Assembly (NCBI GenBank): GCA_029742005.1
Contig: GCA_029742005.1_4113.1
DNA: 64,000 bases
Source of the DNA: a phage
Direction: 5' to 3' (one strand)
The position numbers and the translations under genes are program-made. The notes beneath the pieces were generated by a model. It was not told where the DNA came from. It saw only the letters and a program-made list of their open reading frames with translations, and did no database searches. Of this stretch, positions 3,862 to 60,060 are shown piece after piece. Numbering within the stretch: the stretch's first letter is position 1; each line of letters starts with the position of its first letter.

Positions 3862-4152
<291 letters not shown>

Positions 4153-26393: not shown

Positions 26394-26585
26394 ATGTTGA
26401 TTTATCAAAGTGATAATATTCGTGTTATGCAGCATCCCTACTTACAAATCTTTGATGTGCAGCAGTATATGGAAGGTGATGACCCAAGAACCTATGGTCG
26501 TAAGTATGATTACTTCACTGTAAAGCAGTGTAAAAATATTAACGAAGTACGACAATTAGTTCAAGAACTTCAAAACAAAGGTTGA
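26394..26585 (+). CDS. hypothetical protein
   Basis: Internal ATG after AAGGA RBS (MLIYQSDN). Confidence 0.45.
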   Translation: MLIYQSDNIRVMQHPYLQIFDVQQYMEGDDPRTYGRKYDYFTVKQCKNINEVRQLVQELQNKG

Positions 26586-26611
26586 CTTCGGTCAGCCTTT
26601 TTTGTTATAAT
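26580..26611 (+). promoter_or_regulatory. combined terminator-like stem-loop and sigma-70-like promoter (class B cassette)
   Basis: GGTTGAC-TTCG-GTCAGCC hairpin plus T-run; TTGACT inside the stem, TATAAT 17 bp downstream. Confidence 0.6.
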
Positions 26612-29429: not shown

Positions 29430-29813
29430 ATGGTTGATAAATGGAATAAGAAAGATCCATCACATGATGTTGATATTTCTGGTCTAGACAATGCACATAA
29501 GCACAAGTATCTAGATTCACTAGGTCTTCTAAAACCAGACCAAAGTCTTGCACATGATCGTCCATCCCGTGAAAAAGCATTTAGCCTAGAATCACTAGGT
29601 CATGAGCTTAATCGTGTGTTTGAGGATCACCCAATCTATGTACGTGATATTATCGAGAAACTTAAAGTAACTCCTAAAGAGCACTTTAAAGCAACTGTAC
29701 ACTCTGCATTCCGTGCATTACATGAATCTCTAAAGAAAACTCACAATCTTCGTAAAATTCATGATGAAATCGTGAATGCAATCGAAAGTGAAAAACATAA
29801 GTTCAAGAAGTAA
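29430..29813 (+). CDS. hypothetical protein, shares LGLL N-terminal motif with 31120..32364
   Basis: ORF track; AGGAG RBS. Confidence 0.55.
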   Translation: MVDKWNKKDPSHDVDISGLDNAHKHKYLDSLGLLKPDQSLAHDRPSREKAFSLESLGHELNRVFEDHPIYVRDIIEKLKVTPKEHFKATVHSAFRALHESLKKTHNLRKIHDEIVNAIESEKHKFKK

Positions 29814-29821
29814 TAAAAAGG

Positions 29822-29858
29822 GGTTGACTTCGGTCGGCCTTTTTTTATATAGTAAATA
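29822..29858 (+). promoter_or_regulatory. terminator-like stem-loop with embedded TTGACT (class B cassette, weaker -10)
   Basis: GGTTGAC-TTCG-GTCGGCC plus T-run, then TATATA. Confidence 0.5.
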
Positions 29859-29891
29859 TATGAAATAATAAAGATTCAGGGATTATATTTC

Positions 29892-31076
29892 ATGGCTAGT
29901 GGGATACGATTAACACAAGAAGAAGCTGAAAAATTAGTAGCGAATAGATGTTTAGAAGAAAATTATACATATAAACCTTTCACTTATATTAACACTAAAA
30001 CAATATTAGAACTTAAATGTGATAACTTTGAACATGAAGAATGGAAATGTAAATTTAGTAAATTCATTTACAAAAGAACTGGGTGTCCAGAATGTAAAGG
30101 AAGAAATTCTTTAAAAGAAAAAACAGCAAGAACTAAAGTTCATGAAATATGTGAATTAAAAGGATATACTTATGAACCATTTGATTTTAACGGTGCTATA
30201 GGAACAAAAATAATAATTCATTGTGGAGTTGACTCTCATAAACCACATGAAACTAATTATAATTCTTTAGTTAATAAGAAAAATGGATGTATTGAATGTG
30301 GTGGAAAGTTAAAATTAACCCAACAACAAGCAGAATTAAATGTAATTAACATATGTAATACTACTGGATATACTTATAAACCTTTTGAATATAAAAATAA
30401 TAGAACTAAAATTACATTAAAATGTTGCAATCCCGACCATGATGAATTTAGTTTAAGTTATGATAAATTTGTATATCAAGGTAATGGGTGTGTAAAATGT
30501 GGAAATCAATCTACAGCTAGAAAACTTTGTCTTTCGCAAGATGAATCAATTAAAAGGCTTAATGAAATTTGTACATCTAAAGGATATACTTATAAACCAT
30601 TTATATATAAAAATGTACATACATTAATTACATTAAAATGTTCAGAATGTGAACATCCTGAATGGACAACTCGATATCAAAATATTGTTCAAAAGCAACG
30701 AGGTTGTCCAAGTTGTAGTCGAGGTGGATATGACCCAAATAAACCTGGTTATTTTTATATACATCGAGTTCTAGGTAATGGTAGGATATATTATAAATTT
30801 GGTATAACAAACAATTATATATACAGATTTGAACAATATAATAAGAATTTATTTAGAACTGAAAAATATAAAACATATTACAGTACTAATGGTATTTTAA
30901 TCAAAGAACTTGAATATTTTATTAAACATATGAGTGGCATAAAAAGAAAAGTTATTGATAAAATAAATTATTTAGATGGGTATACTGAAACAATCAATGA
31001 ATCAGAATATGAAAAATTAATAAAAATAATTGAATCATATAATGTACAAGAACTTGATGTGAACAGTATTAAGTAG
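29892..31076 (+). CDS. protein with four tandem zinc-ribbon repeats and C-terminal T5orf172/GIY-YIG-like domain
   Basis: Four ~65-aa repeats each with GYTYKPF and CxxC pairs; C-terminal GYFYIHRV...YYKFGITNN. Confidence 0.6.
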   Translation: MASGIRLTQEEAEKLVANRCLEENYTYKPFTYINTKTILELKCDNFEHEEWKCKFSKFIYKRTGCPECKGRNSLKEKTARTKVHEICELKGYTYEPFDFNGAIGTKIIIHCGVDSHKPHETNYNSLVNKKNGCIECGGKLKLTQQQAELNVINICNTTGYTYKPFEYKNNRTKITLKCCNPDHDEFSLSYDKFVYQGNGCVKCGNQSTARKLCLSQDESIKRLNEICTSKGYTYKPFIYKNVHTLITLKCSECEHPEWTTRYQNIVQKQRGCPSCSRGGYDPNKPGYFYIHRVLGNGRIYYKFGITNNYIYRFEQYNKNLFRTEKYKTYYSTNGILIKELEYFIKHMSGIKRKVIDKINYLDGYTETINESEYEKLIKIIESYNVQELDVNSIK

Positions 31077-31119
31077 TATAATAAATAATAATATATTTTA
31101 TGCTAAAGGAGGGCACACG

Positions 31120-32364
31120 ATGCCTAGTGATTATAATAATGGTGATATGAAGCACAGAAATGGTGCAATTGTTCAACATTCAAAACGCAAGTCGGAGTAC
31201 CGCCCTGCTGGAAACTATCATAGTGGTAGAAAAATGAGTCGTAACCAAAGCACTGGTGCACAAGGTGTAGAAAATGCAAAGCCGGGTGAAGTAACAGATA
31301 CTTCCAAAATGAATCAACATGAAAAATTAAAATACATGAATGCTTTGGGATTACTTAATGCTCATCAAAAAGAGCAACTAGCTGCAATGGATAAAGCACA
31401 AGAACGTCCAGAAGCAGCAGAAGCCCCCGCACAATCAAAAGCGACTAACCCTGTCAAAGAACTGTCTGATAAGTTAGGTAAGATTTTTGCTAATAAACCA
31501 CAACTTATCCAAGGTATTGTGAAAGAATTGCAATCTGTACCTAAAGAAGAATTAAAAGTCAAAGCACAAGCTGTACTTGATGCAATGAGTGGAAATACCA
31601 GTACTGAACCAACTGAAGTATTCAGTACTATAATGCGTGCACTTGAAGGTACGCAACAAGGTGATGTGCCTGCACAAGAGGAAGTAAGTCTTGAAAGCGT
31701 ACTTAAAACATTTGATAGTATTGGTAAAGAAGACCGTGCTAATGCTCAACAAGTTAAGAATGTACTAGCTAAGTTAGAAAACCGTCTGGAAGGTAAAGAC
31801 GATAAGATTAAATTAGTATCTGATGCAGTTAACGATGCACTTAAATCTTATGTACAAGGTGAAAAGAGTCGTTTTGTAACTGCAATGGATGCTGCATTCA
31901 ATACTATGAAAAAGTATGAAGCTGATCATGGTGAGAAGGTTACACGAGATGGTTATCTGATGCGTGATGATGAAGAAGGTGCAGTAGAACAGAATGATGT
32001 TCATTCAGACGAAGAAATTGATGACATGGAAGCTGAACTGTCACAAGACCGCCAAATGACTGAAAAATCCCATAACGAACTACAGAAATTAATGCAATGG
32101 GTTGCAGATGTTGGTGAAAAAGCTGGTGCTGATAAGAAGAGTATAAACCGAAATCTTAGTTGGATTAAAGATAAAGTTGGTAACAACGCTCGTAAACTAC
32201 AAAAAGCGTGGACTGATGTAGTGAATGGTGCTGTTGACATTGATGTTGAATCCGGTGAGGCATATGATTATGCATTGACTACACTTGATGACTCTTTCCG
32301 TGATTACGAAAATGGAAATGTAACTCCTTGGGAAAAGGATATCATGAGCAAATACGGTAAATGA
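31120..32364 (+). CDS. hypothetical acidic protein (414 aa)
   Basis: ORF track; AAGGAGGG RBS. Confidence 0.6.
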   Translation: MPSDYNNGDMKHRNGAIVQHSKRKSEYRPAGNYHSGRKMSRNQSTGAQGVENAKPGEVTDTSKMNQHEKLKYMNALGLLNAHQKEQLAAMDKAQERPEAAEAPAQSKATNPVKELSDKLGKIFANKPQLIQGIVKELQSVPKEELKVKAQAVLDAMSGNTSTEPTEVFSTIMRALEGTQQGDVPAQEEVSLESVLKTFDSIGKEDRANAQQVKNVLAKLENRLEGKDDKIKLVSDAVNDALKSYVQGEKSRFVTAMDAAFNTMKKYEADHGEKVTRDGYLMRDDEEGAVEQNDVHSDEEIDDMEAELSQDRQMTEKSHNELQKLMQWVADVGEKAGADKKSINRNLSWIKDKVGNNARKLQKAWTDVVNGAVDIDVESGEAYDYALTTLDDSFRDYENGNVTPWEKDIMSKYGK

Positions 32365-32374
32365 TAAAACAAAA

Positions 32375-32406
32375 GGTTGACTTCGGTCAGCCTTTTTTTT
32401 GTAAAT
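32375..32406 (+). promoter_or_regulatory. terminator-like stem-loop with embedded TTGACT (class B cassette)
   Basis: GGTTGAC-TTCG-GTCAGCC plus T8. Confidence 0.55.
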
Positions 32407-33460: not shown

Positions 33461-33492
33461 GGTTGACTTCGGTCAGCCTTTTTTGTTATGAT
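33461..33492 (+). promoter_or_regulatory. terminator-like stem-loop with embedded sigma-70-like promoter (class B cassette)
   Basis: GGTTGAC-TTCG-GTCAGCC-TTTTTTG-TTATGAT. Confidence 0.55.
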
Positions 33493-38101: not shown

Positions 38102-38134
38102 GGGTTGACTTCGGTCAGCCCTTTTTGTTATAAT
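38102..38134 (+). promoter_or_regulatory. terminator-like stem-loop with embedded sigma-70-like promoter (class B cassette)
   Basis: GGGTTGAC-TTCG-GTCAGCCC, T-run, TATAAT. Confidence 0.6.
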
Positions 38135-38685: not shown

Positions 38686-38718
38686 GGTTGACTTCGGTCA
38701 GCCCTTTTTGCTATAATT
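38686..38718 (+). promoter_or_regulatory. terminator-like stem-loop with embedded sigma-70-like promoter (class B cassette)
   Basis: GGGTTGAC-TTCG-GTCAGCCC, TTTTTG, CTATAAT. Confidence 0.6.
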
Positions 38719-57895: not shown

Positions 57896-58081
57896 ATGCA
57901 TAAAGAATACTACACACAATTTGTTAAAGGGAACTACAAACATGCCGTACCCAGAACCCCTTTAAATTCTCATGACCCAAGTACTATATTCTTGTTTAAT
58001 GACGCAATACGTACAGTACTCAATACTAAAGATGAAGATGTGCAGTACGTATTCTTACTATTACTTATATACAGACACTAA
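57896..58081 (+). CDS. small paralog-array protein
   Basis: Internal ATG (MHKEYYTQFVKG); C-terminus LLLLIYRH. Confidence 0.5.
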   Translation: MHKEYYTQFVKGNYKHAVPRTPLNSHDPSTIFLFNDAIRTVLNTKDEDVQYVFLLLLIYRH

Positions 58082-58086
58082 CTAAT

Positions 58087-58296
58087 ATGAATAAAGAACA
58101 TAAAGAATTCTACTCCAAATACATAAGCCCCTCAGAACAAATGTTTCTAAGGACTACTCCACCTTTAAGTACTAATACATTTTTCGGCAGAGTATGCTAC
58201 AATAATTGTATTCAAATGACTTTAAACGCAAACGAAGATGGTAACAGTACTAACCTGTACTCAGGTATCATAGGTATACTATTCCTGTATGAATAA
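58087..58296 (+). CDS. small paralog-array protein
   Basis: MNKEHKEFYSKY ... Confidence 0.5.
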   Translation: MNKEHKEFYSKYISPSEQMFLRTTPPLSTNTFFGRVCYNNCIQMTLNANEDGNSTNLYSGIIGILFLYE

Positions 58297-58477
58297 TTAC
58301 AAAGACTTCTATTTGAATACACTACCTACTGTACTTTCTCTAAGTGCTCAATGTAAAATCCCGCTGGATAATGCTTACGCCAGATATAGCTATTCCATAA
58401 CTGTTAATCGATGTATAGAGAATCATTGCAGTACTAACCAGTACTATAACATAATCCTACTTATATTCAGGTACTAA
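58289..58477 (+). CDS. small paralog-array protein
   Basis: MNNYKDFYLNTLP ... ILLIFRY. Confidence 0.5.
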   Translation: MNNYKDFYLNTLPTVLSLSAQCKIPLDNAYARYSYSITVNRCIENHCSTNQYYNIILLIFRY

Positions 58478-58478
58478 T

Positions 58479-58625
58479 ATGAATAAAGAACATAAAGAAT
58501 TCTATATACGAAAACTAACATTCGTCCCCGTAAGAATATATAAAGAATGCGACCCAAGATTATACCTATGGCACTTCAATGAGTGCATAAAAGATTCTAT
58601 ATACCATAAGAACTATAAAGAATAA
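58479..58625 (+). CDS. small paralog-array protein, short variant (48 aa)
   Basis: Manually read ORF (MNKEHKEFYIRKL...); may be a truncated copy. Confidence 0.35.
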   Translation: MNKEHKEFYIRKLTFVPVRIYKECDPRLYLWHFNECIKDSIYHKNYKE

Positions 58626-58676
58626 TTGTGCTCAGTACTAACACTAGTACTATCATATTAATTAATAGAGAATACT

Positions 58677-58868
58677 ATGTATAAAAACTTCTATATAAGT
58701 AAACTAAAAGAAAATGAACAAGTATGGATTAGATCTATAATTCCACTGGCATTTAATAGATATGCATTTAACAGATGTACCGAGATTGCTATAGACCCTT
58801 ATAATATTAAAGAGAATGTACAGTATAATCAGTACTACTATATCTTAATGCTTATATATAGAAAGTAA
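58677..58868 (+). CDS. small paralog-array protein, last member
   Basis: MYKNFYISKL ... ILMLIYRK. Confidence 0.5.
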   Translation: MYKNFYISKLKENEQVWIRSIIPLAFNRYAFNRCTEIAIDPYNIKENVQYNQYYYILMLIYRK

Positions 58869-59506
58869 TTAAACACAAGTAGACAGGGGAAGCTCCTAGT
58901 GAACAACCTTTATGTACAGGCGAATTGTTAAAATTCAGCCTGGACAAATGCGATCACTAGGATTCTCCCCAGGCTAAACCCCGTAATCATAGGTAGTCAT
59001 AAGTAATCATATATAAACATTTATATGAGCACCGTAGAATCACAGAATGATTATATATGATTCAGTACTGATTAGTATAGACAAGATTGCTCAAGAATGC
59101 ACGGAAATGTGTGTGAATGATTCAGTACTGATATCCCACTAAGTAGGCAGAGGAAGTCTGCCGTACTTTTTAGTTTCCAAGCTCCTTTTCCATTTTTCAA
59201 ATTACATCAAATGTAATCAAAAGTAATCACGCAATGATTAGTACTGAATTATTACTTTCACCTTAATTTCAATGACCCCTTTACCCTTCGGGGTAAAATT
59301 CCATTACCCCTTGAGGCTCCAGCAAAAAGTTGGTTAGTACTCCATCCTAAATCTCGATCCTAAAAATTTTGGAGTACCTATGAAATAAAAGTTGGATCTT
59401 CGAAAGTTGAAATTTACGTTGGGACGTTTATGATTTGTGGGATATAATGATGTTTGTAGTCGGGTAGTTCTCAAGAATATCAGTACTGAATAATGAAAGA
59501 AAGCTA

Positions 59507-59533
59507 TTGACATTATGATTCAGTACTGTATAA
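59507..59533 (+). promoter_or_regulatory. sigma-70-like promoter inside the ORF-free region
   Basis: TTGACATTATGATTCAGTACTGTATAAT; no ORF downstream. Confidence 0.5.
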
Positions 59534-59920
59534 TGTTCTACATAGCTTCAAGGGGTGATGAGTTGCTGCGAACAATTCATTTACTCTACCTCCTGTCGTG
59601 AGACAGTACAGAAAAGATAGTTCCTCCTGTGGTGGTACATCTTTTTGAACCTCATATGAAAATCGTAATAACAGTACTGATATTAACAGAATGGTGTCAG
59701 TACTGATTTTAATCTAAAGCATTATGCCACCAGCACAAGCTGGTGGATTCCCTCTAACAGTATTCAGTACTACATGATAGTCTTCATCCTCCTAGGGTAA
59801 CATAGTGAGGGCTATGATGGCAGTACTGAATACTCCCTTTCAAAAGATAGATCTATGGTATAGTACTGACGGATTTTGGGCGTAGTTACCCTGGATGGAT
59901 TTTGGACGTAGATATGTCTA

Positions 59921-60060
59921 GCCCTCCAGAAGTCTGGAAGTAAAGATGGCTATCCATCTAGACGGCTAAACGGCTAGATTTCTGGATGGCTGGATGGCTA
60001 GACGTTTGGACGGCTAAACGGCTAGATGGTTACACGTCTGGAAGTATAGACGGCTAAATC
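59921..60060. repeat. cluster of short direct repeats (iteron-like)
   Basis: GACGGCTAAACGGCTAGAT x2, GTCTGGAAGTA x2, multiple GGATGGCT copies. Confidence 0.6.

Follow-up and report, generated by a model that had tools for sequence, protein, structure and literature searches.

The gene at positions 29892 to 31076 (+ strand) of a 64,000-nucleotide stretch of phage DNA (GenBank assembly GCA_029742005.1, contig GCA_029742005.1_4113.1; the whole stretch is referred to below as the window) encodes a protein of 394 residues, in which four tandem zinc-finger repeats of the CapR type are followed by a divergent nuclease domain. Our analysis indicates, with a probability of about 0.72, that this protein is a free-standing homing endonuclease of the T5orf172 class, which forms one branch within the GIY-YIG superfamily. 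The genomic context shows that the gene behaves as a mobile element. A preliminary description of this DNA, made from the sequence alone, missed this behavior, and it also missed that phage homing endonuclease genes with exactly this architecture had been described before as a class (PMC10448857). The homing endonuclease gene is intact and apparently was recently transferred. We infer both the homing itself and the position of the target site, which are considered below together with the competing explanations.

Architecture of the 394-residue protein

The protein is encoded by a single open reading frame (ORF) on the + strand, which occupies exactly 29892..31076, starts with ATG and is preceded by a weak Shine-Dalgarno sequence (AGGGA, 9 nt upstream). 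In the PHROGs collection it is assigned to phrog_681, "endonuclease" (2.8e-66), and its repeat region also matches phrog_559, "HNH endonuclease". The elements of the gene are as follows.

29892..31076, + strand: gene most probably encoding a free-standing T5orf172-class homing endonuclease; complete ORF, 394 aa; phrog_681; relatives in TH47 and RaK2
29907..30107, + strand: zinc-finger repeat 1, aa 6-72; putative ligands C43, H48, C65, C68
30108..30311, + strand: zinc-finger repeat 2, aa 73-140; putative ligands C111, H116, C133, C136
30312..30512, + strand: zinc-finger repeat 3, aa 141-207; putative ligands C178, H183, C200, C203
30528..30728, + strand: zinc-finger repeat 4, aa 213-279; putative ligands C250 (and C253), H255, C272, C275
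30720..31073, + strand: divergent T5orf172-like (GIY-YIG superfamily) nuclease domain, aa 277-394

The preliminary description had proposed four internal repeats of approximately 65 aa, and internal-repeat alignment agrees with it. The repeats are anchored by the motif Y[TE]Y[KE]PF at residues 25, 92, 160 and 232, which gives spacings of 67, 68 and 72 aa, and they are 31-46% identical in pairwise comparisons. Their local alignment scores range from 91 to 165, versus approximately 25 ± 5 for shuffled partners (z = 12.8-26.7), so that the repeats are real and an effect of composition is excluded. The motifs within the repeats differ in part from what had been described. The core GYTYKPF, attributed to every repeat, is found exactly in repeats 3 and 4 only and reads NYTYKPF in repeat 1 and GYTYEPF in repeat 2. 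The paired CxxC motifs were a misreading for three of the four repeats: the ligand pattern is C-x4-H-x16-C-x2-C in all four, and a second CxxC (C250-x2-C253) is present only in repeat 4.

These ligands are widely conserved. Of 128 repeat units taken from 69 homologues, 127 have the first Cys and 100 have the His, while the CxxC has its first cysteine in 127 units and its second in 126. In an alignment of 23 repeat units, the three Cys columns are invariant. The repeat region matches the Pfam CapR homology domain (PF21817) in three stretches, with an E value of 1.1e-15 and 57.9 bits versus a cut-off of 24.2, and also DUF4379 (PF14311), a "probable treble clef zinc finger" (4.5e-10, 40 bits versus a cut-off of 24.5). 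When the repeats were scored in isolation, repeats 3 and 4 were above the CapR cut-off (30.7 and 31.6 bits), repeat 2 reached 23.2 bits, and the fragment of repeat 1 had no CapR match, a negative that is uninformative because the fragment was cut before C68; isolated repeat 4 scored 24.1 bits on DUF4379. A scan of the protein against NCBIfam returned sub-threshold zinc-finger noise and nothing else. Searching the PDB with the repeat profile revealed no solved structure of a close relative; the best sequence match was a DUF4379 mitoribosome assembly factor, with a marginal E value of 0.012.

CapR is a small repressor from the PLE satellite of Vibrio cholerae and represents the domesticated DNA-binding part of T5orf172 endonucleases of phage ICP1; its binding to DNA was demonstrated by gel shift and is abolished by mutation of its four cysteines (PMC8096241). 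The profile matches support the view that the repeats are zinc-binding modules from a family in which DNA binding has been demonstrated for CapR only, and the repeats of the present protein probably bind zinc and DNA themselves. The earlier proposal of a multi-zinc-finger nucleic-acid-binding protein is likewise supported by the matches to PF21817 and DUF4379.

The last repeat is connected to the C-terminal domain by a conserved G-Y-x-P-x-K-P-G junction. The segments GYFYIHRV (aa 286-293) and YYKFGITNN (aa 300-308) come after this repeat, as the preliminary description stated, and the resemblance to GIY-YIG/T5orf172 that it saw in them held in an indirect form: the domain has no direct Pfam match, but it aligns with Pfam-positive domains in profile-profile comparison and is linked to them by transitive matches. 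A search with residues 277-394 against 1.84 billion representative proteins returned 126 homologues (E<=1e-3). Pfam scans of 122 homologues found MUG113 in 24, T5orf172 in 20, CapR in 59, DUF4379 in 38 and DUF723 in 16. In four of the homologues (P0045, P0033, P0010 and P0020), the T5orf172/MUG113 matches are above the Pfam cut-offs and lie within the aligned C-terminal region; P0045 has in addition a sub-threshold match to PF01541 (18.4 bits versus a cut-off of 22.6). The profile of the C-terminal domain family, built from 41 sequences (A2), was compared by hhalign with that of the C-terminal domains of P0010 and P0020, which are positive for Pfam T5orf172 and MUG113, and of P0012, which is positive for neither (A3). 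The two profiles align over 89 columns with a probability of 99.0% and an E value of 7e-18.

The AlphaFold model of the domain, obtained from a 123-sequence alignment, has a mean pLDDT of 96.5 and the element order strand-strand-helix-strand-helix. This predicted beta-beta-alpha-beta-alpha topology has the features of the GIY-YIG alpha/beta fold, namely, a three-stranded sheet in which the two motif strands come first and are followed by helices. A model of the whole protein from its single sequence was unusable (pLDDT 39.7). Foldseek comparison of the C-terminal model with the PDB gave nothing significant (best E value of approximately 0.7-1, with SLX1 among the top matches), and a sequence-profile search of the PDB with the C-terminal family gave chance matches only. 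Comparison with predicted viral structures retrieved 76 phage proteins at E<=0.001; those that carry a name are mostly "CapR homology domain-containing protein", and the allele of phage UB is named "Homing endonuclease".

Seven residues are invariant in both the 123- and the 41-sequence alignments: Y289, placed in strand 1; K302 and G304, in strand 2; R312, in helix 1; E341, in helix 2; and G363 and E366. The hhalign comparison places them opposite LY, KIG, R, E and G..E(WF), the motifs of classical T5orf172 domains. Judged by where they lie in the fold, Y289, R312 and E341 would be the counterparts of the Tyr, the Arg and the catalytic Glu in GIY-YIG enzymes. Among T5orf172 domains, endonuclease activity has been demonstrated experimentally only for Odn of ICP1, which cuts DNA and loses its activity when the Glu that aligns with E75 of I-TevI is mutated (PMC8263062). 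Taken together, the profile-profile comparison and the transitive matches support the assignment of the domain, as a divergent member, to the T5orf172 type within the GIY-YIG superfamily, and they give support to the nuclease relationship that had been suggested earlier. As judged from these alignments, the domain keeps the residues that an active enzyme should have; its subgroup, "GYTET", is largely missed by the Pfam models; the 394-aa protein is probably an active nuclease. The preliminary description had named an outcome that would speak against it, the lack of any GIY-YIG or T5orf172 profile match together with the lack of conserved Cys ligands, and this is not what was found.

The locus in related phages and the mosaic block

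The window is part of the genome of an Asteriusvirus jumbo coliphage (PBECO4/121Q group, approximately 350 kb, 33% G+C). When 50,697 phage records were searched by megablast, TH47 alone had the DNA of the gene (97.4%), and 49 records had the flanking DNA. The gene is absent from SP27 and 121Q, where the upstream flank is 98.8% identical up to window position 29850 and the site holds instead a hydrophobic ORF of 37 aa between two copies of a stem-loop motif. This ORF (MQGLKFVVAALIAAVLVGGVFYVVDQKVNPPAQEQSK; SP27 (L001) 2885-2998 and 121Q (L005) 2683-2796) is predicted to encode a single-pass membrane peptide. Since tblastn found no degraded remnant of the gene at the SP27 and 121Q loci, the alleles without the gene are not decayed copies of it, and this explanation was rejected. 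As expected of a homing gene, the gene is thus polymorphic in its presence at a fixed locus among close genomes.

Two further alleles occupy the site. Phage UB carries a divergent two-finger allele of 257 aa at the same locus (L002 2893-3666), the nuclease domain of which is only 43% identical, so that the site has been invaded, or its occupant replaced, more than once. RaK2, which belongs to another genus, has a four-finger orthologue, gp261 "endonuclease" (P0002; 65% aa identity), in the same place, ahead of the same structural gene. The protein family as a whole spans 184 phage records, often with several copies per genome, and is frequently annotated as "endonuclease". Its hosts are RB49-like T4-type phages, Vequintavirinae, jumbo phages of Klebsiella, Pectobacterium and Xanthomonas, and phages of Aeromonas and Vibrio, and the jumbo genomes contain several paralogues each. 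Within the 64-kb window, tblastn found no paralogue of the gene.

Sliding identity along the window revealed that the gene lies in a block of different origin from its surroundings. Compared with TH47, the window is 71-89% identical from 28281 to approximately 29800, 92-100% over approximately 29800-31430 (95-100% from 29931 to 31280) and 79-86% past approximately 31430-31450. The comparison with SP27 gives 95-100% from 28281 up to 29850, 49-59% over 31120-31420, and, past approximately 31430-31450, 91% in the first bin and 95-100% thereafter. The window therefore has an SP27-like backbone that carries a TH47-like block of approximately 1.6 kb. The right edge of this block (approximately 31430-31450) is approximate, within one 150-nt bin. 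The left edge is a stem-loop/promoter, where the homology with SP27 ends at 29850. The gene has thus moved together with a flanking tract, which is the co-conversion expected for homing genes. The features of the locus around the gene are listed below.

29851..31430, + strand: mosaic (recombination or co-conversion) block, spanning the endonuclease gene and the first ~310 nt of the structural gene downstream of it
29430..29813, + strand: upstream virion structural protein gene, 127 aa, outside the mobile block
29822..29853, + strand: composite stem-loop/terminator and sigma-70-like promoter, PeSL-like, recognized by sequence reading, by promoter scan and by its six copies in the window
31120..32364, + strand: downstream virion structural protein gene, 414 aa; phrog_20398 (1.1e-152) and 121Q annotation

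The two flanking genes are paralogues: both match phrog_16530, "virion structural protein", and the 127-aa product of the upstream gene aligns with residues 55-156 of the 414-aa product of the downstream gene (26% identity, E value of 2e-10). The possibility that they are the halves of a gene split by the insertion was rejected, given that they are paralogues and that both are intact in the phages without the endonuclease gene. Because the first ~300 nt of the downstream gene travel with the endonuclease gene, this segment is the likely neighborhood of the cleavage site in genomes that lack the gene. The N-terminal part of the larger structural protein is highly variable among these phages, with total lengths of 414 aa here, 417 aa in SP27, 495 aa in 121Q, 515 aa in UB and 565 aa in RaK2.

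The stem-loop upstream of the gene has the sequence GGTTGAC-TTCG-GTCGGCC and is followed by a T-run. According to the promoter scan, a -35 element (TTGACT, 29824-29829) lies within the stem, and a -10 element (TATAGT, 29848-29853) is located 18 nt downstream. The composite motif, AAAGGGTTGACTTCGGTCAGCCTTTTTTGTTATAAT, comprises a GC-rich stem-loop with a UUCG-type loop, the -35 element TTGACT in the stem, the T-run and the -10 element TATAAT. The + strand of the window has six copies of it versus 0 expected, each of them ahead of a gene start.

26580-26600, 29822-29842, 32375-32395, 33461-33481, 38103-38123 and 38686-38706, + strand: copies of the composite motif

This motif resembles the PeSL cassettes of T4-like phages, promoter/terminator cassettes that have been proposed to mediate modular shuffling (PMC2839356, PMC4122927). 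We found no published description of the motif for Asteriusvirus.

Elsewhere in the window, seven tRNA genes are present between 376 and 5414 (Gly-TCC, Ser-TGA, Ser-GCT, Ser-ACT, Met-CAT, Asn-GTT and Thr-TGT). One tRNA-Ser gene, at 3901-3992, has the unusual anticodon ACT (Rfam tRNA, 49.9 bits), and the tRNA-Gly gene at 376-448 is below the Rfam gathering score. The GC skew is positive up to approximately 42 kb, negative from approximately 42 to 58 kb and positive beyond; the switches at ~42000 and ~58000-60000 suggest a block of genes transcribed from the opposite strand.

Proposed mechanism and competing explanations

As a homing endonuclease, the protein would act as follows. The four CapR-type Cys-His-Cys-Cys modules, arranged as beads on a string, would jointly read a long DNA target, and the compact C-terminal nuclease, held by the short G-Y-x-P-x-K-P-G junction, would cut near the bound target. 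The putative active site would be formed by the Tyr of strand 1, the K-x-G of strand 2, the Arg of helix 1, the Glu of helix 2 and the G-x-x-E motif. Transcription would start from the gene's own sigma-70-like promoter inside the stem-loop cassette. When a related phage without the gene infects the same cell, its allele would be cut by the enzyme, probably within or close to the 5' end of the neighboring virion structural gene, and repair off the genome that carries the gene would copy the endonuclease gene with a few hundred flanking bases. The divergent 5' end of the structural gene in genomes that carry the endonuclease gene may also protect them against self-cleavage.

Several observations weigh against this explanation. 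The full protein has no match to Pfam T5orf172, MUG113 or GIY-YIG at E<=1, and residues 273-394 taken alone have none even at E<=10. The family profile does not align significantly with residues 1-97 of I-TevI (hhalign, probability of 0.2%; sequence checked against PDB 1MK0), and for this reason the equivalence of E341 with E75 of I-TevI is drawn from the order of the secondary structure elements. The locus is a replacement of the 37-aa ORF and not a simple insertion, and the block begins on its left at a repeated stem-loop/promoter motif, which could give rise to recombination on its own. Moreover, we know of no cleavage site, target sequence or nuclease activity for this protein or its close relatives.

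One competing view is that the gene is a passenger, and that the patchy distribution and the mosaic block arose from exchange at the stem-loop cassette (PeSL-type) or from ordinary homologous recombination, without any cleavage by the gene's own product. The left boundary lies exactly at the motif that occurs six times in the window, the phages without the gene carry two such motifs around a different small ORF at the site, and PeSLs have been proposed to mediate such cassette exchange (PMC2839356, PMC4122927). The right boundary, however, is approximately 310 nt inside the coding sequence of the structural gene and has no such motif. The cargo, moreover, is a nuclease from a family that is repeatedly found at exchange boundaries (PMC10448857), and the same family is present at the same site in two genera and as two divergent alleles. 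We regard recombination without cleavage as a very unlikely account of the locus. I-TevI also represses its own promoter, and the present protein could be a domesticated regulator, the array of which binds a phage promoter or operator, for example that of the adjacent structural genes or its own, and the nuclease domain of which no longer cuts. CapR is a repressor derived from such endonucleases (PMC8096241), and the gene sits between two virion structural genes, directly downstream of the promoter/stem-loop cassette. CapR, however, is without a nuclease domain, whereas the domain is kept here with every residue that is invariant in the family. A fixed regulator would also be expected in all close relatives, whereas SP27, 121Q and most other Asteriusvirus genomes do not have the gene, and the block moves horizontally. 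A purely regulatory role thus seems improbable.

A nuclease directed against the DNA of a co-infecting phage, a satellite or the host, with the spread of the gene as a by-product, has precedents in this superfamily: as the case of Odn demonstrates, a T5orf172 nuclease can be given a new target and then destroys the DNA of a parasite, here that of the PLE satellites (PMC8263062), and the involvement of T5orf172 domains in phage-satellite conflicts has been discussed (PMC10448857). The presence of several paralogues per jumbo phage genome would fit an arsenal. Such a weapon is nevertheless unlikely to be what the gene encodes, given that no PADLOC defense-system model matches the protein or its two neighbors, that its DNA-binding part is a CapR-type array, as is standard for homing enzymes, whereas Odn uses a module borrowed from a satellite, and that the co-transferred flank is a signature of homing-type repair. 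The two roles are mutually compatible.

Relation to known systems and significance

A survey of 229 T5orf172 homing endonuclease genes found that 87% have CapR, DUF723 or DUF4397 zinc fingers (Barth, Dunham & Seed 2023, PMC10448857). These fingers are often present in multiple copies, as "beads on a string", and the number of repeats shifts by recombination between them; the genes adjoin essential or structural genes and lie at the boundaries of genetic exchange (PMC10448857). The present gene shares many of these properties. As in the class of ICP1 gp174, gp165 and gp121 (PMC10448857), repeated CapR-type fingers at the N-terminus are combined with a T5orf172 domain at the C-terminus. The gene is patchily present in close phages, beside structural genes and at the boundary of a recombination block, and the number of repeats varies between alleles (two in UB and four here). 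It differs from the described class in its host, an Asteriusvirus jumbo coliphage, in its nuclease subgroup, which has G-Y-T-E-T where classical members have E-W-F, and in that Pfam T5orf172 and MUG113 miss this protein and most of the 122 homologues. RaK2, 121Q, PBECO4 and jumbo phages are not mentioned in PMC10448857.

The relationship with the individual members of these families can be followed along the two parts of the protein. The zinc-finger DNA-binding module is homologous to CapR (PMC8096241), after which PF21817 is named. CapR is, however, a small stand-alone repressor without a nuclease, whereas four modules are joined to a nuclease domain here, and the second ligand is usually a His (C-x4-H), in contrast with the CxxC...CxC reported for CapR. 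The nuclease domain belongs to the same superfamily as that of Odn (ICP1 gp88, PMC8263062), which differs in being an anti-satellite weapon whose DNA-binding domain, RepA_N, comes from the satellite that it attacks. Compared with I-TevI and the Seg proteins of T4, the order of the domains is reversed, with the nuclease C-terminal here and N-terminal there. The four-finger array and the very short junction also have no counterpart in those enzymes, which have a long linker, a single zinc finger and a helix-turn-helix, and no sequence similarity to I-TevI is detectable. SLX1 and HIGLE (PDB 7wme, 6seh and 7cq2), which are only 11-15% identical to the domain, act in eukaryotic DNA repair and have a RING/PHD partner domain; these structure-specific GIY-YIG nucleases are functionally unrelated to the 394-aa protein.

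No structure of a CapR-type finger has been solved, either with or without DNA. One tentative proposal, which we consider doubtful, is that each CapR-type finger reads one sub-site, so that the gain, loss or exchange of modules (two in UB, four here and in RaK2) would retarget the enzyme, and that the rigidly joined "GYTET" nuclease would constitute a distinct GIY-YIG subclass with a fixed cut geometry. If both parts of this proposal were true, these proteins would provide a new natural scaffold for programmable zinc-finger nucleases.

Because the protein family and its architecture have already been described, the most probable reading of this gene leaves existing knowledge unchanged. It extends the class of homing genes that combine T5orf172 and CapR-type fingers to the Asteriusvirus and Alcyoneusvirus jumbo phages, and it indicates that the Pfam models overlook a whole "GYTET" subgroup, with approximately four-fifths of the 122 homologues undetected. 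The 1.6-kb exchange block associated with the endonuclease is an unusually clean natural example of such an exchange between two diverged phages, and its sharp boundaries would make the target site easy to seek experimentally.

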